Virus record (IMG/VR): IMGVR_UViG_2703718802_000011
Strand: one strand, 5' to 3'
DNA: 48,734 nucleotides
Source of the DNA: a virus
Lineage: Duplodnaviria > Heunggongvirae > Uroviricota > Caudoviricetes
The notes under the pieces were generated by a model that had not been told where the DNA came from, did not search any database, and saw only the letters and a list, made by a program, of their open reading frames with translations. Position numbers and translations under genes: made by a program. Of this stretch, positions 8,673 through 27,413 are shown one piece after another (the stretch's first letter is position 1; each line of letters begins with the position of its first letter).

Positions 8673-9565
8673 TTTGATACCTCTTTGTTTACTGGGTTTA
8701 ATATCTGAGATGGTAGTTCTGAAAGATTCTCTTGTTCAAGTATATTTTGAAAGCTTTTATTCATCATTATGATGTTAAAAATCTCATTTATTATTAGTAG
8801 ATTGGTTTTTATAAATTTCGAGTTGTTATAAACAGATTTATGTTCAGCGATACTATTTTCATAAAGCTCAATCAACTCCTCTGCAGTCATCCTTTTTGAT
8901 GGTTTGTGATAATAAAATCCGGCTGCTTTTGCACCTTTATTCCCAACTGTTCTTTGATTTAGAATGTATTTTATCTTTATAATGTCCCGACTTTTTATTA
9001 ATTTTTTATCATATGCTTCGGTAAGAATATCTTGTGCTTCCTCAGTTTCACATCTTGCAAATTGCACTGCGAGATACAGAGGCAAATTGCCCCGTTCGAC
9101 TGCTGAGAGAAGTTTATGCTCTCCCTTATCAAGAAGCATATTAATACTGCTCACCCAGTTCGATGAATATCCAGTAATCTCACTTATTTCGGAGTCTGAA
9201 AGTCCTCTGATTTTCATGTCTTTAATCACCTGTAATAACTCATTAGAACGTGGTCTTCTCCTTGCAATGTTTTCAACTAAACTCATAACGTAAGCATCTT
9301 CTTCTGATACATCTCTTATAATTGCTGGAATAATAGTTTCACCTAATGCAACAAGAGCCTCTATTCTCCCTTGACCACAAATTAAAGCATATTTGAAATC
9401 GTCTTCATCAATAGCTCTTACGCTTATAGGCTTGCTTAATCCTCTTTTTTTTATGCTTTCCTTTATTTCTTCATGCACTACCTTATTTCTTGTTCGTGGG
9501 TTAAGAAATTTTATTTTTGCAATCTCAATTTGAATTATTGGGAATTCATTTTTTTCAGGCAGCAT
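8669..9565 (-). CDS. ParB-like partition/nuclease-domain protein with HTH
   Basis: 298 aa; 'ISVRAIDEDDFKYALICGQGRIEALVALGETIIPAII' (ParB box-like) followed by an HTH-like 'LSDSEISEITGYSSNWVSSI'; overlaps the recombinase 3' end. Confidence 0.5.
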   Translation of the reverse strand: MLPEKNEFPIIQIEIAKIKFLNPRTRNKVVHEEIKESIKKRGLSKPISVRAIDEDDFKYALICGQGRIEALVALGETIIPAIIRDVSEEDAYVMSLVENIARRRPRSNELLQVIKDMKIRGLSDSEISEITGYSSNWVSSINMLLDKGEHKLLSAVERGNLPLYLAVQFARCETEEAQDILTEAYDKKLIKSRDIIKIKYILNQRTVGNKGAKAAGFYYHKPSKRMTAEELIELYENSIAEHKSVYNNSKFIKTNLLIINEIFNIIMMNKSFQNILEQENLSELPSQILNPVNKEVSK

Positions 9566-11111
9566 ATAGTTCCCTCACTTTCATGCGAGTAATAATTTGT
9601 AGAAATTTATCAAGATTATCAAATCTATAGAGATCTAACCGAATGTTGTTTGTTTCCATCATACACATTTTACTATATTCGTTTTCAATCTTTGGTATGA
9701 TATAAAAATCAAGAGGTGAAATATTTTGTGAATTCATTCGTATAACAATTGTTATGTCTGCTTTCTGTGAGTTATCAAACCGGACTTTCCATCTAAGTTT
9801 ACCTGATTTCATATGTATGCATTTAGTAACAAGGACGGAAATTAAAAACTCATCATTGATGTAAAGCATTGGGTAATATTTATACTCGTCTATATGACAG
9901 TTACTTTTTAATATTTCGCCCTTAAAATCCTCAATTATCTCTGAGTAAAATGATCTTAGTGCTTCATTTATTTGGAGATAGCTGTAATCATGTTCTGGCT
10001 TATAACCAATCAAAGTATATGCTCTTAAAAGACCACCAAATCGGGTTCTATAAACAGAAGATGAAGGGCCTGTATCATCTTCATCAATGATAAAGCCTGA
10101 TAGTTTTCCATTAGATTCTAATTTTTCTTTTAGCTTTTCTAATAGATCTTCATTAGTCAAATGAATGGATCGGAGCTGAATTATTTCTTGAGCTTTATTA
10201 TATTTTTTCTTTGAAATAATTGGTTTATATGCCTTGTCACATCTAATCCATTCATGTTTGGGGTTTTTTACAAGCTTACTTTTTAGTTTAGATGAGGTTT
10301 TGTTATATATGTTGTTTCCAATATATTTTTCATTTGTCAAAATTTGATGTATTTTTGCACGAGTCCATGATGTTCCATTTTCTGCAGGTATGCTCTGTTC
10401 ATTTAATCTCTCAGCAATAATGAATTCTGGGACGTTACTATCTATAAAGAGATCATAGATTCTATTTACAATTTTTATTTCATTTTTTGGTCCCGGAATT
10501 AATATTACCCTATCTGTTTGAATACTCTTTCTTTTGCGGAAATTCAATATTTCTTTAGCTATGCCATTTTCGTCTACTAAAAGACGTCTCAGCCCATAAC
10601 CAGCCATACCGCCTTGATGATAACCAAGCTTTATTAAATTTACTTGCCCTATAAATACCTTTTCAGATAGATTCCTGCTGTGATATGCAGCACTTGATCT
10701 TTTTATATTCAGTATAACAGAGGACTCTAAAGGGAAATCTTTAGTGGGTATAGGTTCGGAACAATATATAAGATCTACACCATTTCTTTCAAATAGAAAG
10801 GAATAATATGCAGCTTCATCACTATTTTGAAAACGACCAAAACGGCTCACATCATAAAATAATACAGCCTGTATATCTATTTTCTTTTGTTCTACATCGC
10901 TAAGTAACTGCTGCAAAGAATGCCTGCCTACGATACTGACTCCGCTCTTACCTGCATCATCGTAGGTATAAGCGATTTCCATATTGTTCTTTTCAGCATA
11001 ATCTTTGATATATTCAGACTGATTATGTAAAGAATATTGCTGATGGTCGGTAGACATCCTCAAGTACTGTGCGACCCTAACTCTATGATTTTTTTCATTT
11101 CCGCTAGCCAT
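9555..11111 (-). CDS. Large serine recombinase
   Basis: N-terminal catalytic motifs 'YLRMSTDHQ' (Ser nucleophile), 'DDAGKSG', 'GRHSLQQLL', 'DVSRFGR', plus a large C-terminal domain. ATG at 11109-11111 (track ORF begins at TTG 11117). Confidence 0.7.
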   Translation of the reverse strand: MASGNEKNHRVRVAQYLRMSTDHQQYSLHNQSEYIKDYAEKNNMEIAYTYDDAGKSGVSIVGRHSLQQLLSDVEQKKIDIQAVLFYDVSRFGRFQNSDEAAYYSFLFERNGVDLIYCSEPIPTKDFPLESSVILNIKRSSAAYHSRNLSEKVFIGQVNLIKLGYHQGGMAGYGLRRLLVDENGIAKEILNFRKRKSIQTDRVILIPGPKNEIKIVNRIYDLFIDSNVPEFIIAERLNEQSIPAENGTSWTRAKIHQILTNEKYIGNNIYNKTSSKLKSKLVKNPKHEWIRCDKAYKPIISKKKYNKAQEIIQLRSIHLTNEDLLEKLKEKLESNGKLSGFIIDEDDTGPSSSVYRTRFGGLLRAYTLIGYKPEHDYSYLQINEALRSFYSEIIEDFKGEILKSNCHIDEYKYYPMLYINDEFLISVLVTKCIHMKSGKLRWKVRFDNSQKADITIVIRMNSQNISPLDFYIIPKIENEYSKMCMMETNNIRLDLYRFDNLDKFLQIITRMKVRELYAA

Positions 11112-11393
11112 GCACAAAACCTCATGGATGATTCAATACAATGTAGAGGATAAAATTGATCAAATTTTAACCGAATTCAACTGTTTTATCATTGATTAGA
11201 GCGAATTTGGTAGTTCTTCGAGGTGTATGATAATCGAGAAGAGATGTGAATTATTTAGCTGATATGACCGACAGCTTTCGTTATGTGGCCTCAAGGTACC
11301 CATTTGTAAATGGCTATGCTTAGTCCACATAGGTTAATGGTGTGATCATTAATTCTTCAAATAAATCAAGATAGTTAACCCATCATGGAAGAG

Positions 11394-12623
11394 TTATGCG
11401 GCAATAACTTTGTATTTTTGAGACGAAACATAGTCACTCCACCATTGCATGAGAACCACACGTTCTGTGAGATACTCTGCACGATTGTAGGCTGCAATTA
11501 TTTCATCTTTTTTCGAGTGGGCAAGGGCGGCTTCTAAGACATCAGTTCTAAACTTGCCACACTCCTCAGCCGCCGTTCTAGCGATTGATCGCATACCATG
11601 AGCTACAAGCTCACCTCCGAAGCCCATACGGATTATAGCCGCATTAGCTGTTTGTTCATGCATGTGATTGAGTGGAGCTTTGATACTGGGAAAAACCCAC
11701 TCTCTATGCCCGCTGATGGCTTTCATTGAATCCAAGACTCGCAAAGATTCTTTGCTCAGTGGAACTTTGTGAGGCTTCTTCATTTTCATAAACTCCGCCG
11801 GGATGTTCCACATGCTGGTTTCTATATCAATATCTGACCATCTTGTGCGAACAGCTTCACCAGGGCGAACCCATGTGAGAAGTTGCCACTCAATCAGTAG
11901 CCTTGTTTCTAAACGGATAGAAGCATTGTTTAGAGCAACCAGGAAGCGGGGGAGTTCGGAAGGGGGTAATGCTGGCATATTCTGTTTTTTTGGCTTGCTG
12001 AACCGTTGCCCCAGGTTGTCAGCCGGATTGAATTCTATGAGTTCTTCTGTTGCTGCATAGCGGAAAATTTCATTCAGGCGGGATATGACGCGGCGAAGTG
12101 TTTCAAGGACACCTCGTTTTTCTATGGGGTCTAAATGCTGTTTAAGCATTTTAGGGCGAATCTCCTTAATGGGGGTATCACCCAACGTTGGAAAGATATT
12201 TCTCTCTAGGCTTCGCCAGATGTCGTTAGCATGATCCTGGGAGATGCCTGACGTTTTGACTTTCTCATCAAGCCACTTCTTGGCTACTGCTTGAAATGTA
12301 TGTTCCGTTGCATCCTTAAGGGCATTGGCTTTGTGGGTGTTATGAACTTGTGGGTCTATACCATTTGCAAGCAACGACAAGTACTCATCACGTAAAGCTC
12401 GTGCCTTCGCAAGTGTAAGGTGAGGATAGGTTCCTAAGCTCACCTTAGTTCGCTTTTTGGTCACAGGCACTGCATATCTGAAATACCAATTTTTCTTTCC
12501 TCCCTTCGCTAAGGGGGCGATTCGCAGGAGCAAACCATCGCCGTCAAAAAGGTTAACCTCTTTCTCGGCAGGTTTGGTGCTTTTGATTTCAGTGTCAGTG
12601 AGCTTCTTAGCGATTTTTGCCAT
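11394..12623 (-). CDS. P4-type tyrosine integrase
   Basis: Starts at ATG 12621-12623 ('MAKIAKKLTDTEIK'); P4-like N-terminal arm-binding region and C-terminal catalytic region ending with a Tyr motif ('YNRAEYLTER'); adjacent to the ssrA 3'-end repeat. Confidence 0.8.
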   Translation of the reverse strand: MAKIAKKLTDTEIKSTKPAEKEVNLFDGDGLLLRIAPLAKGGKKNWYFRYAVPVTKKRTKVSLGTYPHLTLAKARALRDEYLSLLANGIDPQVHNTHKANALKDATEHTFQAVAKKWLDEKVKTSGISQDHANDIWRSLERNIFPTLGDTPIKEIRPKMLKQHLDPIEKRGVLETLRRVISRLNEIFRYAATEELIEFNPADNLGQRFSKPKKQNMPALPPSELPRFLVALNNASIRLETRLLIEWQLLTWVRPGEAVRTRWSDIDIETSMWNIPAEFMKMKKPHKVPLSKESLRVLDSMKAISGHREWVFPSIKAPLNHMHEQTANAAIIRMGFGGELVAHGMRSIARTAAEECGKFRTDVLEAALAHSKKDEIIAAYNRAEYLTERVVLMQWWSDYVSSQKYKVIAA

Positions 12624-12720
12624 GTTTGGGACCCTCATGTTTTGGACCCTTTGTGTTGGGTCCCAAAAAGGGTGCCATAACGAGTAGATTCTAGCAATTC
12701 TCGGTAGACTACTATAGACG

Positions 12721-12754
12721 TAAAAAAGCCCGCAAGGCTGGTTCCATGCGGGCT
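12721..12754 (-). terminator. Rho-independent terminator downstream of the displaced ssrA 3'-end copy
   Basis: Stem agcccgca/tgcgggct (12727-12734 / 12747-12754) followed on the minus strand by a T-run (complement of aaaaaa at 12722-12727). Confidence 0.55.
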
Positions 12755-12788
12755 TGATAGACTTCACTGAACTTCAATATATCAAAAA

Positions 12789-12834
12789 TTGGTGGAGCTG
12801 GCGGGAGTTGAACCCGCGTCCGAAATTCCTACAT
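12789..12834 (-). repeat. attR-type direct repeat: 46-bp copy of the ssrA 3' end
   Basis: 'ttggtggagctggcgggagttgaacccgcgtccgaaattcctacat' is identical to 47674-47719 and diverges immediately after. Confidence 0.85.
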
Positions 12835-12889: not shown

Positions 12890-13981
12890 TTAGACTGTGT
12901 TAGGCATTTTTACGTCGTTAAACTTCTTTGTCGCCATTTTGCCGCCACTGGAAGCTTTTATAACGTTAGGCTTTGTATATTTATCCCAGTGAGGAGAATA
13001 AATCGGACAATCAAGTGTAATATATTGATCAAAAAGAAATCTAAAGTCTGTTTCATATATGTAATTAATTATATGTTCATACGGACCTAATTCGGCACCA
13101 TAAATTATCGTTTTTATTTTTCTTGTTAGATATATACTTGCCTCAACGAATTCAAGAAAAGCATTTTCTTCGTGAGCAAAAGTAATAATACTGTATTCAT
13201 TGATCGATATTTTATATCTTGCCCGCATAATACTGTCGATACAGAGCTTTTCAAAAATCATGGCTGTTTTGTTAGAAACAGAATTTATTATTCTAAGGTA
13301 CTCCAGTGGTTTATTTTCTGGGGCCAGTTTCCTTGGTTTTAATGCGTTATCTATATCTCTAAGTAATACTTCTATTTCTTCTAGGAACTTGCTGCTTGGT
13401 TCGAAGTTAGATAGGCTGTGTGGGGCTGAGTTGGGGTATATTTTTTTATAGAGCAAGTAAGGATTTGTAATTTTAACTTGATCGGTAGTTGCTATTTTTT
13501 CATTATCAATTTCCTTGGACGAAATGATGCTTCCATCTTTGTTAGATAGATTTAAAATTGTGAAAGTAGATAAGTGGTTTATTTTTTCGATGAAGTTTTT
13601 TTCATGAGCCAAATATCTGTCAACGGCATTTTTGCTATCAACTGCTTGTATTTGTGCTTCGGTTTGAATTGTGCGATGAATATTGTTTACTATCGATGCG
13701 AGAGGAACGGAACTTGCTAGTAGCAATAAAGGAAACTTGCTGATCTCATAAAATCTAAAATATCCGTGAGCAGTGAGGACAGGTGTTTTTCCACTCCATG
13801 CAAAGTAACCAAAGTAAAAAAATGAAAAAACAGGAAGTAAAATCGATAACCAAAATAATTTTTGGCGGTATAGATTTCTTTTGTCTAACTTGTACCATCT
13901 TCTCCAAATGGAAATGATTAAAATTAATATAATTATTGTTGCATAAATATAAATGTATATATAGTCAGGATATGTTTTCAT
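12890..13981 (-). CDS. Membrane protein (N-terminal transmembrane helices), AT-rich moron translationally coupled to int
   Basis: 363 aa; hydrophobic N-terminus ('IIILILIISIW', 'LFWLSILLPVFSFFYFGYFAW'); ATG overlaps the int stop (ATGA at 13978-13981); strongly AT-rich compared with neighbouring phage genes. Confidence 0.5.
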   Translation of the reverse strand: MKTYPDYIYIYIYATIIILILIISIWRRWYKLDKRNLYRQKLFWLSILLPVFSFFYFGYFAWSGKTPVLTAHGYFRFYEISKFPLLLLASSVPLASIVNNIHRTIQTEAQIQAVDSKNAVDRYLAHEKNFIEKINHLSTFTILNLSNKDGSIISSKEIDNEKIATTDQVKITNPYLLYKKIYPNSAPHSLSNFEPSSKFLEEIEVLLRDIDNALKPRKLAPENKPLEYLRIINSVSNKTAMIFEKLCIDSIMRARYKISINEYSIITFAHEENAFLEFVEASIYLTRKIKTIIYGAELGPYEHIINYIYETDFRFLFDQYITLDCPIYSPHWDKYTKPNVIKASSGGKMATKKFNDVKMPNTV

Positions 13982-15000
13982 ACGTGATTTATACTATTTA
14001 GTGGGTTTTTGGTTACTGCATCTTCAAGATGTTCAGGGGAAAAATGTGCATATACCATGGTCATCTTGATATCTGAGTGACCCAATATATCTCTCAATAC
14101 TAGGATATTTCCGCCGTTCATCATAAAATGGCTGGCGAATGTATGGCGCAACACGTGAGTGCATTGGCCATCAGGTAGTTCGATACCGGCCCGTTTTACT
14201 GCACGCTCAAAGGCTTTTCTGCATGGTGTGAATAACTTCCCTCTGTTTTTGGGTAGCTCGTTGTACAGATCCTGAGATATCGGTACGGTGCGGTTTTTTT
14301 TACCCTTTGTCTTTGTATAGGTAATCCGGTATTTCGATAGTTGATGTCCCTGCAGGTTTTCAGCTTCACTCCAACGTGCACCAGTTGCTAGGCATATTTT
14401 TGCAATCATCAGCAGACTGGGGCTTTGAGAATCAGCACAGGCATCTAGCAGACGTTTAATTTCTTCCGGAGTCAAGAACGCCAGTTCACCTTCAGTAATT
14501 TTAAATGTTGGAAGCCCGGCAAGAGGGTTGGGGGCTGACCAGTGGCCCAGCTTTTTCAGTGTACCAAAAACCGATGATAGGTTGCGTTGTTCAAGATTTA
14601 CCGTGCGGGGCTTAACGGGCGACATTAGCGTGCCATCTTCATTTCGCACTTCACCTTTTAGCCGTGCTTCGCGGTATTTCGTAAAGTCACCGGCAGTCAG
14701 CTCTGAAGCGATGGGATCGCCTAGACCATTACAGATAATTCTAAGTTTCGCCATGAGGCGCTTGGGGTCTGCGAGTGTTTGACCATATAGGGAATACCAC
14801 AGCTCAATTAATTCTGATAGGCGTCTGCGATCTTCCTTTTCCCCCAACCATGGTTTTTTGTTCACTTCTTCCATTGTGAAGCTTTCAAAAGCAATGGCTT
14901 CGCCTTTTGTAGCAAATTGCTTACGTACGCGCTTGCCATTGCGTCCATTGGGATAGCACTCACACAACCATTTACCGTTTGGCTGTTTTCTGACAGTCAT
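13978..15000 (-). CDS. int: P2/186-type tyrosine integrase
   Basis: 340 aa (P2 Int is about 337), 'MTVRKQPNGKW...' N-terminus, C-terminal 'HVLRHTFASHFMMNGGNILVLRDILGHSDIKMTMVYAH' tyrosine-recombinase catalytic region. Confidence 0.85.
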   Translation of the reverse strand: MTVRKQPNGKWLCECYPNGRNGKRVRKQFATKGEAIAFESFTMEEVNKKPWLGEKEDRRRLSELIELWYSLYGQTLADPKRLMAKLRIICNGLGDPIASELTAGDFTKYREARLKGEVRNEDGTLMSPVKPRTVNLEQRNLSSVFGTLKKLGHWSAPNPLAGLPTFKITEGELAFLTPEEIKRLLDACADSQSPSLLMIAKICLATGARWSEAENLQGHQLSKYRITYTKTKGKKNRTVPISQDLYNELPKNRGKLFTPCRKAFERAVKRAGIELPDGQCTHVLRHTFASHFMMNGGNILVLRDILGHSDIKMTMVYAHFSPEHLEDAVTKNPLNSINHV

Positions 15001-15002
15001 GT

Positions 15003-15635
15003 TTAGATACTCTTTATTACTTTGACTGCGCGCCCAATAATTTCCACATCATCAGCAGAACACTCGAAAGACGCTTCATCTTGATTTACTACAATCTTAT
15101 TGCCGGGAATCCGCATGATTTTTGCAATAATAATCATTCCATCAATATTGATTAGCCAGAATCCATTGCTGACTTGTTTAACTGATTTATCGATGAGATA
15201 ACAATCAGTTGGGGTTTCTAAGAACATCGATTCTTCATAATGTGCAGGTAATATGCTGTGGTCTAGGAAAATATCTTCATCAATACTGAGTTTTCCATTC
15301 TCTAAGGTTCCTTTAGGAATAGATGGAGTTATGAGTTTGGATAGTGGTTTAATTGCTTGTTTGTTCTCATTATGAGATCTTTTCTCAGGCTCACATCCTC
15401 CTTTCATGCTTCCCTGGCCTGTAGCTAACCAAAGCAACGAAACACCGGTTTCTAGTGCGCACTGAATTATCCAGTCAGCAGGAAAACTGTCGCGTAACAC
15501 TCTGTTTGCCATAGTGCTTTTTGAGACATTCAGGTGCTCGCTTAATGCCTGCTTAGTTGTGAATCCATAAGCCTCAAGCAGCCTCTCAATAGCTGCCTTG
15601 CCTCCCGTATCGGAACCCATTCTGATGTTTAACAT
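15003..15635 (-). CDS. cI: CI-like immunity repressor (HTH)
   Basis: Divergent from apl/cII; HTH-like 'TKQALSEHLNVSKSTMANRVL'; likely start at ATG 15633-15635 with a GGAG RBS (track ORF extends to 15683); size about 210 aa, similar to 186 CI. Confidence 0.6.
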   Translation of the reverse strand: MLNIRMGSDTGGKAAIERLLEAYGFTTKQALSEHLNVSKSTMANRVLRDSFPADWIIQCALETGVSLLWLATGQGSMKGGCEPEKRSHNENKQAIKPLSKLITPSIPKGTLENGKLSIDEDIFLDHSILPAHYEESMFLETPTDCYLIDKSVKQVSNGFWLINIDGMIIIAKIMRIPGNKIVVNQDEASFECSADDVEIIGRAVKVIKSI

Positions 15636-15756: not shown

Positions 15757-15999
15757 ATGAGTACTGATATTTCAATTCGTGTACCAAAAGAGATGGCTAC
15801 GCCTGCAGAGTTCGCAGAGTGGGAGGGCATTTCCCGTGGCTCTGTTTACCAAAAAATTCACCATGGCCAACTTGCTAAATACATGGTCAAGAAAGAAAAA
15901 AACAAAGGCCGCGTAAGCCTGCGTTATCTGATGTACAAAACCGATCAGGTCCGTGAATCCCTCGGTCATTCCAACTTCCGTGTCATTGTTGGTAAGTAA
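15757..15999 (+). CDS. apl: Apl/Cox-like excisionase and transcriptional regulator
   Basis: 80-aa first gene of the lytic operon, divergent from cI; HTH-like 'AEFAEWEGISRGSVYQKIH'. Confidence 0.55.
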   Translation: MSTDISIRVPKEMATPAEFAEWEGISRGSVYQKIHHGQLAKYMVKKEKNKGRVSLRYLMYKTDQVRESLGHSNFRVIVGK

Positions 16000-16031: not shown

Positions 16032-16541
16032 ATGTTTGATTACAGGATTTCCAAACATCCGCATTTTGATGAAGCCTGTAGAGCTTTTGCACTACGTCAC
16101 AATATGGCGAAGCTGGCAGAACGTGCAGGAATGAATGTCCAGACTCTGCGAAACAAACTCAACCCAGATCAACCGCATCAGCTCAATGCGCCAGAAATCT
16201 GGCTGCTTACCGATCTGACTGAAGATTCAACGCTGATAGATGGTTTTCTGGCACAGATTCACTGCCTGCCATGTGTACCGATTAATGAGGTAGCAAAAGA
16301 GAAACTGCCGCATTACGTCATGAGTGCAACCGCAGAGATCGGGCGTGTTGCTGCAGGTGCGGTATCTGGCGATGTAAAAACCAGTGCAGGTCGTCGTGAT
16401 GCTATCAGCAGCATTAACTCTGTAACACGACTGATGGCGCTGGCTGCTGTTTCATTGCAGGCCCGTTTACAGGCTAACCCTGCGATGGTGAGTGCAGTTG
16501 ATACCGTGACTGGCCTCGGTGCTTCATTCGGTTTGCTGTGA
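16032..16541 (+). CDS. cII: CII-like lysogeny establishment regulator
   Basis: 169 aa (same length as 186 CII), immediately after apl, with an N-terminal HTH-like region. Confidence 0.55.
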   Translation: MFDYRISKHPHFDEACRAFALRHNMAKLAERAGMNVQTLRNKLNPDQPHQLNAPEIWLLTDLTEDSTLIDGFLAQIHCLPCVPINEVAKEKLPHYVMSATAEIGRVAAGAVSGDVKTSAGRRDAISSINSVTRLMALAAVSLQARLQANPAMVSAVDTVTGLGASFGLL

Positions 16542-18131: not shown

Positions 18132-18982
18132 GCACCATCCTGAAATGGGCGGGAAATAAAACCGCCATTATGCCAGAACTGAAAAAACACCTTCCAGCTG
18201 GCCCGCGACTGGTTGAACCTTTCGCGGGTTCCTGTGCGGTGATGATGGAGACGGATTATCCAAGCTATCTGGTTGCGGATATTAATCCTGATTTAATCAA
18301 CCTCTATAAAAAGGTTGCCGCTGATTGTGAATCGTTTATATCTCGCGCCAGAGTTTTATTTGAGATCGCAAACAGGGAGGTAGCTTATTACAACATAAGG
18401 CAGGAGTTTAATTACTCAACTGAAATTACTGATTTCATGAAAGCGGTATATTTCCTGTATCTCAATCGTCACGGTTACCGTGGTTTATGTCGCTATAACA
18501 AGAGCGGGCATTTCAATATTCCCTACGGTAATTATAAAAATCCGTATTTCCCTGAAAAAGAAATTCGCGCATTTGCAGAAAAAGCCCAGCGGGCAACGTT
18601 TATCTGCGCCAGCTTTGATGAAACGCTGGCGATGTTGAAGGCGGGGGATGTGGTGTATTGCGATCCGCCGTATGACGGTACGTTTTCCGGCTATCACACT
18701 GATGGTTTCACTGAAGATGACCAGTATCACCTGGCATCCGTTCTTGAACATCGAGCATCTGAAGGACATCCCGTCATTGTTTCTAACAGTGACACGTCTT
18801 TGACCCGGTCTCTTTATCGTAATTTCACTCACCACTACATCAGGGCGAAACGCAGCATCGGCGTTGCAGCGGGGGAGGGAAAATTTGCAACAGAGATGAT
18901 TGCCACTAAATCTGCTAATTGGTTTAGTGCCGATTTTAGTAGGGGACGTGACTCTACTGTTATTTTCGGGGTGCAAGTGTGA
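18128..18982 (+). CDS. dam: DNA adenine methyltransferase (Dam-like, N6-A MTase)
   Basis: '[11 protein letters not shown]' N-terminus, 'EPFAGSCAV' AdoMet motif and 'DPPY' catalytic motif ('[15 protein letters not shown]'); ATG overlaps the upstream stop. Confidence 0.8.
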
Positions 18983-19809
18983 AAGAAATGCACCACGAAA
19001 TTCATCATTTCCATGGGACGCCTGTCTGGGGAAGTGCTGGCGACGTTCATCGTATTGCGGTGAGCGGAGCTGGCGCTTTCGTCTCCTATGTACGACCAGA
19101 TCAGATTGCGGCGTCCATTCAGCATGCTCAGGTCGTCGGCATTGATAACGGCGCATTTTCTGCATGGGTGCGTGGGCTAAAAATTAACTGGAGTGATTTT
19201 TATAAATGGCTCCTGAACTATTACCACCATCCTAAGGTCGCTTTTTTTGTCATTCCTGATGTTGTGGACGGCGGTGAACGTGACAATGATGCCCTGATAA
19301 ACGAAGTTCCGAAAATGTTCTACGGGAAGGCAACTCCCGTCTGGCATCTGCACGAGTCAATCGATCGGCTTATCGAGCTATGTCGTGAATGGCCTCGTGT
19401 CTGCTTTGGATCGTCTGGTGAATATGCGGCTATCAGAACTGCGCACTGGCATCGTCGTATGCAGGACGCTTTTGAAGCAATTTATTGCCGACACAATTTC
19501 AAAACAGCTGTTCATGGTTTGCGCATGCTTGACGGTCGTGTGTTGGGAAATTACCCACTGGCGACTGCCGACAGTACAAATCTTGCCTGCAATGTCCCCA
19601 AATTTAATAGCAAATATCCTGAGCTTACGCGGGCTATTCAGGAGGCTGAGTATTCGCGCAATCTGACGGAAAAGGAGCTGAAAGCTGTCATTCTGAAAAA
19701 CCGTTGCGCAATTTTAAAAGGTGCAATTGAAGCTGTTCGCCCACCTTCAGTTTCTGATTGGCTGTCGAATGGTTTGCAGCCTTCACAGCTCGAACTGGAG
19801 ATTGCGTAA
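18979..19809 (+). CDS. Hypothetical protein between dam and the replication gene
   Basis: 276-aa ORF (GTG 18979 or ATG 18988) overlapping the dam stop and the A start; no motif I can assign. Confidence 0.45.
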
Positions 19810-22181: not shown

Positions 22182-22274
22182 TTACGCTGGTTAACAATTC
22201 GTGCTCTTAATAATACCAGGCATATCAGGCTGATAAGCGTAAAAAAAACGTTTTACATCAGTAAGATTATTATA

Positions 22275-22294
22275 TACTGTAAATATAAACAGTG
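22275..22294 (+). promoter_or_regulatory. LexA (SOS) box TACTGTAAATATAAACAGTG
   Basis: Perfect CTGT-N8-ACAG with AT-rich spacer (CTGT 22277-22280, ACAG 22289-22292), about 45 bp upstream of ATG 22336. Confidence 0.7.
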
Positions 22295-22335
22295 GTTATA
22301 CATACAGTATTGCGTGTGGTGTCATAGGAGGAAAG

Positions 22336-22524
22336 ATGCAGGACTATTTTTTGGAGTCTTTGAAGCTCCAGCGCATTGATTTTTTTCTTAAGCTTGTAGC
22401 GGCTAGTGAGTGCGATGATGAAGAGAAGCGGCTTGCTATCCAGTGGGTTTCGGAGCTGACCGATGAGTTAATGGCGAAAATCCGTACTCATGAGTACAAC
22501 CGTTCAATGGATCTCCCCGGTTAG
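22336..22524 (+). CDS. Small LexA-regulated protein, candidate Tum-like antirepressor
   Basis: 62-aa ORF with AGGAGG RBS (22326-22331) directly downstream of the SOS box; same relative position as the SOS-controlled tum locus of phage 186. Confidence 0.5.
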   Translation: MQDYFLESLKLQRIDFFLKLVAASECDDEEKRLAIQWVSELTDELMAKIRTHEYNRSMDLPG

Positions 22525-23109
22525 GCTTAGGAACGTTGCTGGCGTTAGGACTTGATTCTGACGCTAGCAAGGTTGATCAACGAGCCATGCGAGGCGTTAG
22601 TCATGGGCAAAAAAATAGTAACTTCCAGATTTTGTTTCGTGCCAGGTATTGAGTAGTTTTATCGCCAGAGGGGCTGTTAGCGCTCAAACTACTAATGGAG
22701 CCACACCTTAGATGAGTGATTTGGCTTAAGCTATGATTATATAGTTTTGCTGTACGGCGGCCTTGCTTTTTATTGAAGCGACCAGACTGGAACAACGGCG
22801 AAAGGAGACTAACGATACGCACCAGTTTTTTGAAAAGGTACAGTTATCTAGATTGGTTGCCAATTTTCGTTGAAGCCTGACATACCATTAGGTCATTGCT
22901 TTAGAAAAATTAATACTTGATGTGAGAATTGCTTCAAAACATCTAGAATTAAAGTTTCTTTACTAGTATGCTTCACCACTTGGTCGTTGGGTTGAGTGCA
23001 AAAGCTAAGGCTGATGCCCAGTACGCTATCCGCATTATTGCCAGAGAACCGATTCGAAACCGGAATCTGGCAGAGCATGGGCGCAAGTGCTGGCTTCCCA
23101 ACGGCCTCG

Positions 23110-24078
23110 TTATTTATAATATGCTGACTTCAAAACCACTCGTCTTTCAACCTGCTGTGATAGCATTACCGCGTTAGTCCAATCTTTTGGATACCTTATT
23201 TCTTCTATAACACGAATATAAGCACATACTTTATTTTTTCCCTCTCCTTTGGCATAAGTAACCTCTAGATTATTAAATTTCAATAAGTGCTCTCTTCTTT
23301 GGTAAGTAAAACAGCCGTAATCACGGACATCAGAAGAAGTAATAGCATGAGTTGAAGGAAACCGAACTAGTAAATTTCTCAAGTAGGGAATAATGTCCAA
23401 ACTCGTTGCTTTGTTTTCTTCTCTGCGACTCTTTCTGAACATATGTCTCCAACCCAGCCGTGTAAGCTCGATTTTCCCAAGCACCGGAGATGTGATTTCT
23501 TTCTGTTCAGAATAACGTTTTTTAACAAACGCTCGCCGATTATTAAGTAGTGAGTTTCTTCTTCTTACATGGATTCCTTTTGCTCCAGTTTCACCTGCAC
23601 GTACCATGGACATACAGCGAGCCAGGTCAAACCGTGTAGCCGGAGTGATTAAGTGATATTCTCCATAAGTTTGGTTTTTAAGGGTAGTGTTTGGATGTAT
23701 ATAGGCCCAAAATGCTTTACGATTAGTTCTGTCAACCCAAACGACACATATATGGTGAGTTGTCCTTTTGGCTGCTTTTTTTGCGGCCGAATTTAATACA
23801 AAACCTTTCTCTAATAAATGACCATAAGTTGCCCCTGATTTAACTTGCGACAATATAAGCATTCTTTCTTTTGATGCCCATGGATGTTCGAAGGATAATA
23901 TTAAATCTATTTTTGAATTGTCGTCTTCCCTGGAACCCCAGTGCCCCTCTCCTCTACAAGCAAGAATGAATTGACTCATTGCATAAGATTCGGCGTCACT
24001 GCCGTTAACTGAGTTAAACTGTCTTGTTTCTAGCACAGTTGGTATTGGTCGTGATGCAAGTAAACTGAAAGATCCCAC
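23110..24078 (-). CDS. Hypothetical cargo protein in the A-Q hotspot
   Basis: 322-aa ORF on the opposite strand to flanking phage genes, AT-rich, with no P2/186 counterpart at this position. Confidence 0.5.
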   Translation of the reverse strand: MGSFSLLASRPIPTVLETRQFNSVNGSDAESYAMSQFILACRGEGHWGSREDDNSKIDLILSFEHPWASKERMLILSQVKSGATYGHLLEKGFVLNSAAKKAAKRTTHHICVVWVDRTNRKAFWAYIHPNTTLKNQTYGEYHLITPATRFDLARCMSMVRAGETGAKGIHVRRRNSLLNNRRAFVKKRYSEQKEITSPVLGKIELTRLGWRHMFRKSRREENKATSLDIIPYLRNLLVRFPSTHAITSSDVRDYGCFTYQRREHLLKFNNLEVTYAKGEGKNKVCAYIRVIEEIRYPKDWTNAVMLSQQVERRVVLKSAYYK

Positions 24079-24686: not shown

Positions 24687-25601
24687 ATGCCATACCAATT
24701 GGTAGAGCTTAGCCCCGTAGCTAACGATCTTGAACAGTTAGGAACCAAAGAGAAGTTTTGGTTCTATTTCTCCGATGACACTGTAAATTTGCAGTTGTTT
24801 AAGTACTCTAGGCCAGGTACTGGCGAGCATTGGTCTGAAAAGTGTGCTGCTGAGTTATGTCATTTGCTTAACATTCCACATGCTAGCTATGATTTGGCGC
24901 GATACAATGGTCGATTCGGTGTGGTGACTCAGAATATCATTCCATCTGGTTTCCGGATGGTAATGGGAAATGAAGTGCTTCACAGTTCGACATTCGATTA
25001 TCCTGGGCCTTTACAAGCCGGGGAAAAGCCGGTAAGGGTCAGAGAACACACTGTCACAAGGGTATTGGGTTGTTTGGATAGGGAATCTATCAAGCCTCCT
25101 CCGAGTGTATATGATCTAACCGGGCTAAATGCAGCAGATGTATTTTGTGGATATTTGATGCTCGATGCACTTGTGAGTAATCAAGATCGCCATCATGAAA
25201 ATTGGGCGATCATGCTTAACAATGAAACTGGTGAGCAGTTTTTGTGTCCAACATACGATCATGCCGCTAGTTTAGGAAGGGAGATGTTAGATGATGAGCG
25301 TAACGAACGGCTTAATACTAAAGATAAAAATCGACAAATCCCATGTTTTGTAAGAAAAGCTCGCTCTGAGCTATTCAAAGCAAAAACTGATAAAAAGCCC
25401 TTGCTGACCGTTGAAGCATTTCAACATGCAGTTGAAGGGAGAGTTGCCGCTCGCGACCATTGGTTAGGTAAGTTGAGCGTTTTAACAGAAGATTCCATTA
25501 CAGATGTGTTTAACCAAGTGCCTTCATCGTGTATATCCGACAGTGCACGTAGATTTGCAACGTTAATGGTAATGGAAAATCGCAGAAGGTTACTAGAATG
25601 A
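24687..25601 (+). CDS. HipA-like (HipT-type) serine/threonine kinase domain protein
   Basis: 304 aa; 'LGTKEKFWF' (HipA P-loop-like) near the N-terminus, catalytic 'SNQDRHHENWA' (D-x-H-x2-N, about nt 25185) and 'CPTYDHAASLG' (HipA D332-region-like). Confidence 0.65.
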   Translation: MPYQLVELSPVANDLEQLGTKEKFWFYFSDDTVNLQLFKYSRPGTGEHWSEKCAAELCHLLNIPHASYDLARYNGRFGVVTQNIIPSGFRMVMGNEVLHSSTFDYPGPLQAGEKPVRVREHTVTRVLGCLDRESIKPPPSVYDLTGLNAADVFCGYLMLDALVSNQDRHHENWAIMLNNETGEQFLCPTYDHAASLGREMLDDERNERLNTKDKNRQIPCFVRKARSELFKAKTDKKPLLTVEAFQHAVEGRVAARDHWLGKLSVLTEDSITDVFNQVPSSCISDSARRFATLMVMENRRRLLE

Positions 25602-26338
25602 CTAATACAAACTCCGTTTACGTCGCATGGCAGGCACCAGATACCAGAGACTGGCATGTTGTTGGTAACTTGCAAGAGCGCAAATCGGGGTATGTTTTCA
25701 GGTATACCAAAGGTGCTCTTAAATCTACTAAATTTACAAAGTTTAGCGGCATGAGTGATGTTCGTGAAACTTATGTTTCGGAAGAATTGTTTCCTCTTTT
25801 TAAAAATCGCCTTTTATCACCGAGACGTCCAGAGTATCCGAGTTTCATTAAATGGCTTGGATTTGAAGAAGATAAGGTAAATCCTATCGATATTCTTGCT
25901 CGCTCGGGAGGCTTACGAAGCACTGATCAGCTGCAGATTTTCAAAAAAATTGATGTTGATTCTGATGGTAACTTTGAGCATTTTTTCTTCTTACATGGAC
26001 TTGGTTACTTAAATAGCTTAGCTAATGCTCGTGTATCTGAATTGAAACCGGGGCAAATTTTGCGTCTTTGCTTGGATCTTCAAAATGAATACGATGGGGA
26101 TGCTGTTGTCGTTCGTGCAGATAAACCAGCTGAAATCGTTGGTTACTGCCCTAGGTATTTAAGTAATGATATCAAGAAGATGTTATTGGATGATCCAAAA
26201 TCAATCACTTTAACGGTCGAAAAGATTAGCGATGATGCTCCTCATAACTATCGGTTATTATGTAAATTATCAGGAGTACTAAGCCAAGCCTGTCAATCGA
26301 CGCTGATTCCTCAGGATGAGTTTGAACCTATTGAGTAA
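25598..26338 (+). CDS. HipA N-terminal (HipS-like) domain fused to a HIRAN-like domain
   Basis: ATG overlaps the kinase stop (ATGA). N-terminus 'VVGNLQERKSGYVFRY...EELFPLFKNRLLSPRR...NPIDILARSGGLRS' resembles the HipA N-subdomain; C-terminus 'ILRLCLDLQNEYDGDAVVVRADKPAEIVGYCPRYLS' resembles the HIRAN consensus. Confidence 0.5.
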   Translation: MTNTNSVYVAWQAPDTRDWHVVGNLQERKSGYVFRYTKGALKSTKFTKFSGMSDVRETYVSEELFPLFKNRLLSPRRPEYPSFIKWLGFEEDKVNPIDILARSGGLRSTDQLQIFKKIDVDSDGNFEHFFFLHGLGYLNSLANARVSELKPGQILRLCLDLQNEYDGDAVVVRADKPAEIVGYCPRYLSNDIKKMLLDDPKSITLTVEKISDDAPHNYRLLCKLSGVLSQACQSTLIPQDEFEPIE

Positions 26339-26372: not shown

Positions 26373-27413
26373 TTATGGGACTATATCTAGCGAGTAGGTA
26401 TTAAACTGTATCGCCTCCTTGCCAAGCCAATCATTCATCTCCTGTAATCGCTTTTGTAGTGGCATTAGCTCATTTCGGACGAATACACGGCTTGCCTTTT
26501 CCACATCCCCAAACCCCCCAACATTATTCGGCATAATCCCCATCATTTGTGGCGGCACGCGGTGCGCTGCCATCATGTCATCCCGACTCACGTTCTTGAT
26601 GTTAAGAAATTCATCCTTCGCCGCGACTTCTGACAATGGGATGATCTGAAGCCCGTCTTTTTTGCCGTTAGGTGAGTACATAAACAGGTTGCGGAAGTTG
26701 CCTGGACCTTTGGCGCTTTTCATCGCGTTGCGGAGGTTGTTCACATCCTCCTGATTCTGCGCGGCATCGGTCATGTACATGATGAAGCCTGCATGGCTGC
26801 CATTGATGTAATACTTACGGCGGAACAGCGTGGCGGACTCGTTGAGCAGAGCGGATGGAATAGCAGAAAGATAGCCAGGCAGGCCGTAGATCTCCTGGTT
26901 GATGTCCGGTTCCATCAGATGAAAGATGCTGCCTTTCGTGAACTGATACGGCTGGGTTGTCATACCGTATTGCACAAACCAGTAGGTATCCAGGTCTAAC
27001 CCGCGTCGGGTGTATTTTGCCAGAGCAGGCTCAAGGGCGATAATTTCACCGAAGCGGTTCGTGCGTTTCTCCAGGTAGGCGTTACCAAATACCAGATAGT
27101 CCTGCACAAAACGTGAAAAAGCCTGCTGGCTGAGCAACGGGTGAGGGATATAGGTGCTGGTCAGAATGTTGCACTTTACTGCAATCGGTGAGCTGTGGTG
27201 TACGGCGGCGCGGAAGGTTCGCGCCAGGCCGTCGAAACTCACTGGTGGCTCATACCAACGGTCCATCTGTACGCATTCCACATAGTCCAGCAGTTCGCGG
27301 CGGTCCAGAACAGGAACGGGATCGCCGAAGCTGAATGCTTCGGCTGTAGTTTGACTTTTAAGCTGGATCTGTTTCGTCGCCGCAGCGCGGTTCTTCTTAC
27401 TCTTTCCCATCAA
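26373..27413 (-). CDS. Q: Portal protein (P2 gpQ homologue)
   Basis: 346 aa (P2 Q is about 344); downstream of the terminase large subunit in the leftward operon. Confidence 0.8.
   Translation of the reverse strand: MMGKSKKNRAAATKQIQLKSQTTAEAFSFGDPVPVLDRRELLDYVECVQMDRWYEPPVSFDGLARTFRAAVHHSSPIAVKCNILTSTYIPHPLLSQQAFSRFVQDYLVFGNAYLEKRTNRFGEIIALEPALAKYTRRGLDLDTYWFVQYGMTTQPYQFTKGSIFHLMEPDINQEIYGLPGYLSAIPSALLNESATLFRRKYYINGSHAGFIMYMTDAAQNQEDVNNLRNAMKSAKGPGNFRNLFMYSPNGKKDGLQIIPLSEVAAKDEFLNIKNVSRDDMMAAHRVPPQMMGIMPNNVGGFGDVEKASRVFVRNELMPLQKRLQEMNDWLGKEAIQFNTYSLDIVP

Follow-up and report, generated by a model that had tools for sequence, protein, structure and literature searches.

A predicted LexA-controlled tumA-type antirepressor gene in a 186/Fels-2-like prophage that lacks the DinI-like gene of its relatives

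The locus directly downstream of replication gene A in the 48,734-nucleotide stretch of viral DNA analysed here (henceforth, the window) is very probably, at a probability of about 0.88, the SOS induction module of a 186/Fels-2-like (Peduoviridae) prophage with a TumA antirepressor. On the plus strand, a predicted LexA operator (SOS box), TACTGTAAATATAAACAGTG at 22275-22294, precedes a 62-aa gene of the tumA type (22336-22524, ATG start), whose product matches phrog_698 (E = 1e-36) and shares homology with 186 Tum over the N-terminal half of the latter. This is an established system, described for p95-tum of phage 186, tumA/tumB of PSP3, Fels-2, and DuoHS; the only departure is a missing DinI-like gene. 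LexA binding, CI binding, and the inducibility of this prophage are inferred here from sequence, with the closest genetic evidence coming from a close orthologue in Escherichia coli HS.

A sequence-only reading of the window had described a LexA box with a CTGT-N8-ACAG core, followed by AGGAGG and a 62-aa ORF, and all of these elements are found where it had placed them. The core of TACTGTAAATATAAACAGTG is perfect, and the full box agrees with the E. coli consensus TACTGTATATATATACAGTA at 17/20 positions; it is the sole site with no more than three mismatches to the consensus in the 48.7-kb window, and none of 100 dinucleotide-preserving shuffles gives such a site. The bare 16-mer core constitutes weaker evidence, with two matches in the window against 0.62 expected and at least two in 12 of 100 shuffles. 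A putative p95-like sigma-70 promoter (22252-22280, plus strand) can be read from the sequence as a -35 element TTTACA (22252-22257), a 17-nt spacer, and a -10 element TACTGT (22275-22280); with TTTACA placed 17 nt 5' of TACTGT, the operator would therefore overlap the -10, as in 186 p95. This geometry fits the annotated 186 p95 (TTCACA, 18 nt, TACTGT), in which the LexA site begins at the -10, while a generic promoter scanner makes no call for the element in the window, because TACTGT is a poor -10 that agrees at 3/6 positions.

In the leader of the gene, the Shine-Dalgarno sequence AGGAGG (22326-22331, plus strand) lies 4 nt 5' of the ATG and is kept in relatives. A TACAGT hexamer (22303-22308, plus strand), located 9 nt past the SOS box, resembles a lone LexA half-site and is invariant across four relatives in which the adjacent bases are variable; the 20-mer that overlaps it (22289-22308) agrees with the consensus at 15/20 positions, its left half being poor. 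The whole 154-nt intergenic region, box included, is identical in E. coli HS, and Fels-2 and Cartapus show a small number of substitutions and indels of 1-2 nt; the putative promoter is essentially the same in all three. Further afield, a TACTGT-N8-ACAGT box (with at most three mismatches) stands 15-41 nt 5' of the start of a homologous small ORF in 11/11 relatives, namely HS, Cartapus, 186, PSP3, ESSI2_ev015, ESSI-2, Yersinia phage YenM_06.16-2, and four metagenomic contigs that encode three distant family members. The sequence around the box is otherwise unrelated between these relatives, the distant metagenomic ones included, and by this conservation the LexA site goes beyond what chance would produce. 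Where the neighbours are readable (L012-L015), the small gene sits 3' of a Phage_GPA gene; on the short contigs L016 and L017 no upstream gene is called, and L016 has an Ogr_Delta gene downstream. As a separate observation, 186 (L003, 6985-7012) and PSP3 (L004, 5025-5060) share a conserved ACATACAG...CTGT motif 5' of their p95-type promoters, in an arrangement opposite to that of the LexA box, and this motif is missing from the lineage of the window.

Within PHROGs, the 62-aa product matches phrog_698 at the E-value given above and, more weakly, phrog_8554 and phrog_1993; it has no Pfam or PADLOC family, and neither PF06183 (DinI) nor phrog_189 is matched. A weak match to PPP1R21_C (E = 0.088) was dismissed as noise. 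The protein shares 93% identity with Fels-2 STM2728 and 92% with ECHS_RS04495 of E. coli HS, and its codon differences to relatives comprise 13-14 synonymous against 6-7 non-synonymous changes, a pattern by which the ORF is judged to be under purifying selection. Relative to the HS, Fels-2, and Cartapus alleles, every difference is confined to codons 26-62, codons 1-25 being identical and the upstream region essentially so, which suggests a recombination breakpoint inside tumA. Seven codons separate the protein from the HS tum product, the last three residues among them; the changed C-terminus (MDLPG versus MDVIS) was considered as a product of the downstream deletion discussed below, and this was ruled out, since the codons pair one to one, differing by substitution, and the deletion starts past the stop codon.

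An AlphaFold2 model of the protein (mean pLDDT of 90) is a two-helix hairpin with helices at residues 2-23 and 28-58, in which the turn holds an invariant Cys26 and an acidic stretch. A sequence search of the PDB found no solved relative, and the Foldseek matches in the PDB were confined to generic helical hairpins at E > 1. An exhaustive HMM search of 1.84 billion representatives with the ORF-family profile gathered 86 members, mostly of about 55-75 aa, with a conserved core. By DNA and protein searches, the module is found in many Peduoviridae, such as Cartapus, SopEPhi, RE2010, SEN8, Fels-2, and many Klebsiella prophages, and it is present in approximately 1100 of 5426 complete E. coli genomes (about 20%). 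The databases label the phrog_698 homologues "hypothetical" or "levan regulatory protein".

The relation to 186 Tum is remote and emerges from profiles. The sequence-only reading had called for a comparison with this protein: pairwise BLASTP gives no alignment of the 62-aa ORF with 186 Tum or with PSP3 TumA, and homology to the N-terminal half of Tum becomes apparent once profiles are compared. Residues 1-70 of 186 Tum match the same three families as the ORF, namely phrog_1993 (1e-23), phrog_8554 (3e-12), and phrog_698 (6e-6). Comparison of the ORF family with the 186 Tum N-terminal family by hhalign yields a probability of 97% (E = 1.2e-10), the two being aligned in register and without gaps (residues 3-44 with 3-44) at an aligned identity of about 17%. 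The profile used for this result was built from 50%-cluster representatives and thus holds diverse members; an earlier hhalign run with shallow profiles, the members of which were at least 75-80% identical, had reached only 29%. In an hmmsearch with the diverse profile, 186 Tum scores 31.8 bits, and PSP3 TumA is undetected. These sequence comparisons make the 62-aa ORF and the N-terminal half of 186 Tum remote homologues.

This result bears on the size of the protein, from which it had been proposed that the ORF might represent a distinct antirepressor family. 186 Tum is a fusion of an antirepressor with a DinI-like protein, and its antirepressor activity resides in the upstream half (Lemire et al. 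2011, PMC3121763); a split of tum into tumA (antirepressor) and tumB (DinI-like) has been described for PSP3 and Fels-2 (PMC3121763). In the PSP3 record, the annotation of tumA reads "similar to 5' end 186 tum; UV induction of prophage" and tumB is entered as a DinI-like gene; the DinI gene of Cartapus aligns to positions 71-148 of phrog_189, the DinI-like half of Tum. The ORF is therefore shorter than 186 Tum because tum is split into tumA and tumB in this phage lineage. Moreover, many standalone homologues of the Tum N-terminus, 63-78 aa in length, already carry the NCBI name "Tum protein"; thus the ORF forms no distinct family, and the proposal gives way to homology with Tum residues 3-44.

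Functional support derives from E. coli HS. In the "Phollow" study, "tum (locus tag ECHS_RS04495)" was deleted in the P2-like prophage DuoHS (Nat Microbiol 2025, PMC12055606). Deletion of tum and the lexA(Ind-) allele each abolish the MMC-induced lysis and virion foci of DuoHS, and the host SOS reporter is still active in the tum deletion (PMC12055606). In the RefSeq table, ECHS_RS04495 is the 62-aa gene between the replication endonuclease and the DinI-like gene, and at 92% identity a gene required for LexA-dependent induction thus has a close orthologue in the window ORF. The TumA function assigned to it by orthology to a genetically tested tum is, as a sequence-based assignment, well supported.

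The presumed target of the antirepressor is the CI immunity repressor (15003-15635, minus strand; 210 aa, with the start taken from a RefSeq homologue). Its domains, an HTH of PF07022 and a C-terminal PF16452, are exactly those of 186 CI, and no S24 peptidase (autocleavage) domain is found in it; SOS induction via repressor autocleavage is therefore not expected, an antirepressor would be needed, and a 186-type CI of this kind fits antirepressor-dependent induction. According to Shearwin et al. (1998), as cited in PMC3121763, 186 Tum binds CI and blocks its operator binding. The window CI is 60% identical to Fels-2 CI, 42% to HS CI, and 30% to 186 CI; between the window CI and those of relatives, the N-terminal DNA-binding domain is 66-71% identical, as opposed to 34-56% for the C-terminal domain. 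With TumA at 92-93% identity and CI at 42-60%, one antirepressor sequence thus co-occurs with several immunity types, which suggests that the CI N-terminal domain is the target of TumA and that cross-induction is possible. Cognate recognition of the window CI by TumA is assumed here, HS CI being only 42% identical. The orthologues in HS and Fels-2, taken together with the architecture of CI, bear out the suggestion of the sequence-only reading that the ORF encodes a Tum-like, LexA-controlled antirepressor acting on a CI-like repressor, here one of the 186 type, still as a prediction from sequence.

The window departs from its relatives immediately after tumA. A separate 77-aa gene of the DinI family begins 10 nt past the 62-aa gene in Cartapus, Fels-2, and E. 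coli HS; in the window, a junction at 22525-22535 (plus strand, from the alignment with Cartapus) stands in place of this tumB/dinI gene of about 240 bp. In that alignment, homology runs past the tumA stop, is interrupted by a gap of approximately 240 bp, and resumes at the dinI stop, the gap corresponding to dinI from its ribosome-binding site to its last codons. Of 5426 complete E. coli genomes, 4 have the dinI-less junction and 1083 have tumA together with dinI. Public assemblies contain the exact 62-aa protein in 665 indexed blocks, and the dinI-less layout and the cargo recur in all eight contexts listed for it; an assembly artefact is thus excluded in favour of a circulating lineage. By analogy with Gifsy prophages, the induction of which is unaffected by non-polar dinI deletions (PMC3121763), the loss of tumB/dinI is probably tolerated; it could also alter induction.

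Directly 3' of tumA, RNA folding predicts a 15-bp stem-loop without a U-tract (22536-22570, plus strand), which may be the counterpart of t95a, the partial terminator annotated after tum in 186; in Cartapus, the homologous sequence comes after dinI. A terminator-like hairpin with a T-run (22749-22771, plus strand) is a probable end of the SOS transcript, albeit a weak candidate, as its stem is 5 bp long and such hairpins are no more numerous than in shuffles. Between the two, the gene that comes next in relatives (phrog_2100, Cartapus gp46) is reduced to a truncated remnant of 17 codons at 22603-22656, after which unrelated cargo begins.

The proposed switch would operate as follows. In an undamaged cell, host LexA would occupy 22275-22294, cover the -10 of the p95-like promoter, and keep tumA off. 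Upon DNA damage, RecA would be activated and LexA would cleave itself, whereupon tumA would be transcribed, with its strong Shine-Dalgarno sequence directing translation. The two-helix TumA would then bind the 186-type CI stoichiometrically and keep it from binding its operators, so that the early lytic promoter would be derepressed and the prophage induced. TumA represents the antirepressor (N-terminal) half of 186 Tum, the DinI-like half (tumB in relatives) having been lost here.

The module lies within what is, by its sequence, a P2-like (Peduoviridae) prophage of the 186/Fels-2 type. Its integrase (13978-15000, minus strand) precedes the CI gene, and an Apl/Cox-like excisionase (15757-15999), CII (16032-16541), and replication gene A (gpA, PF05840; 19758-22181) follow, with Fil and Dam methylase genes listed between CII and gene A. 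A cargo region comes after gene A, and then the portal gene (26373-27413, minus strand), the terminase, and the late genes. The 62-aa ORF is the first ORF 3' of the 154-nt intergenic region that follows gene A; it was rightly placed at the position of 186 tum, which in the 186 record likewise stands directly after gene A and ahead of the portal and terminase genes.

Several further genes of the window were noted in their own right. The gpA-portal cargo hotspot is occupied by two overlapping genes (24687-25601 and 25598-26338, plus strand) that form a PDC-M03A/B candidate defence pair (PADLOC, E = 2e-122 and 3e-93), the former encoding a HipA_C-like kinase and the latter a protein that combines a HipA N-terminal-like region with a HIRAN domain. 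Between tumA and this pair, a 322-aa ORF (23110-24078, minus strand) with no Pfam, PHROG, or PADLOC match may belong to the defence cargo; other assemblies show it conserved next to the same genes, with called lengths of 289-322 aa. A 276-aa gene between dam and gene A (18979-19809, plus strand) matches phrog_887, "queuine tRNA-ribosyltransferase" (E = 3e-96), is Tgt/DpdA-like with no Pfam match, and may be a DNA 7-deazaguanine modification gene; the prophages of E. coli SCU-115 and HS, though similar in other respects, lack it, and the left flank of the SCU-115 prophage also differs from that of the window. At the other end, a 363-aa ORF of phrog_17460 (12890-13981, minus strand; no Pfam match) overlaps the integrase gene of the prophage at the 3' end of the latter and probably represents cargo at the att end. 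The left flank beyond it (1-12800) looks like a second integrative element by its genes, which include a tyrosine integrase (11394-12767, minus strand), a large serine recombinase (9555-11117, minus strand), three ParB/RepB-like ORFs (7777-9565, minus strand), a RelA/SpoT-domain protein (5819-6724), a NACHT-associated iREase2 protein (3703-4764), and an ankyrin-repeat protein (610-1563, minus strand).

Other explanations of the locus were weighed against an SOS induction module with a TumA antirepressor. The chief of these accepts the SOS regulation and holds that the 62-aa protein no longer induces its own prophage, owing to a diverged CI or a defective prophage, so that the gene would either be a relic or act chiefly in trans, on 186/Fels-2-like prophages resident alongside its own. 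The near-constancy of TumA among prophages with far more divergent CI proteins is compatible with this account, antirepressor crosstalk in trans is documented in Salmonella (PMC3121763), and the tum-positive P2-like prophage BTP5 expresses tum and yields no detectable infectious phage (PMC7067206). We nevertheless regard it as quite unlikely, since the plausible target, the N-terminal DNA-binding domain of CI, is the better conserved part of the repressor at 66-71% identity, the ORF appears to be under purifying selection, the dinI-less layout circulates widely, and the replication, portal, terminase, capsid, lysis, and tail ORFs appear to be kept when compared with an annotated RefSeq homologue.

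An SOS-induced accessory gene (moron) with another function, e.g., a DinI-like modulator of RecA or the SOS response, would suit a protein that has no Pfam or PADLOC family and no solved structural relative, and the homologues of which are named "hypothetical" or "levan regulatory protein". Such a role is highly improbable given that the protein has no DinI similarity, the DinI-like part of Tum being the other half, that it is homologous to the N-terminal half of Tum, and that deletion of its orthologue abolishes induction and leaves the SOS reporter unaffected (PMC12055606). Least credible of all is a chance AT-rich palindrome upstream of an ORF that is free of LexA control. The frequency of the bare 16-mer core, with two copies in the window and at least two in 12/100 shuffles, would permit such a reading, and it is opposed by the full 20-mer match, which is unique in the window and is reached in 0/100 shuffles, by the box in 11/11 relatives with unrelated flanks, and by the block that lexA(Ind-) imposes on induction of the orthologous prophage (PMC12055606).

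Compared with known systems, the predicted TumA module is closest to DuoHS tum and Fels-2 STM2728, with which it shares the length of 62 aa, an identity of 92-93%, an identical SOS box, a near-identical promoter and leader, the placement after gene A, and a 186-type CI partner; it differs from both in the absence of the DinI-like gene 10 nt downstream, in seven codons, and in a CI that is only 42% (HS) or 60% (Fels-2) identical. PSP3 similarly has a LexA box and a tumA of about 60 aa, and serves as the precedent for the N-terminal half alone acting as an antirepressor; unlike the window, it then has a separate DinI-like tumB, and its TumA shows no similarity detectable by BLASTP or profile, the two being linked only through their common relation to 186 Tum. 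Phage 186 has in common with the window a LexA box over the -10 TACTGT after gene A, 44 homologous N-terminal Tum residues, and the CI architecture. Its Tum, at 146 aa, carries a DinI-like half at its C-terminus, and truncated modulators arise from internal starts, whereas the window holds the N-terminal module only and has no orf97 homologue downstream. Alternatively, the module can be set beside GfoA, GftA, and FsoA of the Gifsy/Fels-1 prophages and AntC of N15, in which a LexA-repressed small protein likewise inactivates a non-cleavable repressor (PMC3121763). Such antirepressor genes are often co-transcribed with a dinI homologue (PMC3121763), and in the Gifsy prophages dinI comes first in the gene order; these proteins belong to unrelated families, are carried by lambdoid or N15 phages, and act on other types of repressor.

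For annotation, the 62-aa phrog_698 family can be named TumA, by virtue of its orthology and its profile link to 186 Tum. A more tentative extension, which we consider rather doubtful at present, is that TumA is a broad-specificity antirepressor of the conserved CI N-terminal domain and that the dinI-less lineage may have altered dynamics of SOS induction. If so, one near-invariant 62-aa protein would induce P2-like prophages of different immunity types in trans, and the altered dynamics of the dinI-less, PDC-M03-coupled lineage would stem from the absence of a RecA-modulating TumB partner. The module with its TumA antirepressor predicts, on the whole, that DNA damage, such as that caused by SOS-inducing antibiotics, would induce this E. 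coli prophage via a LexA-controlled antirepressor and with no repressor cleavage; the predicted induction would thereby bear on the mobilisation of the prophage and its defence cargo.
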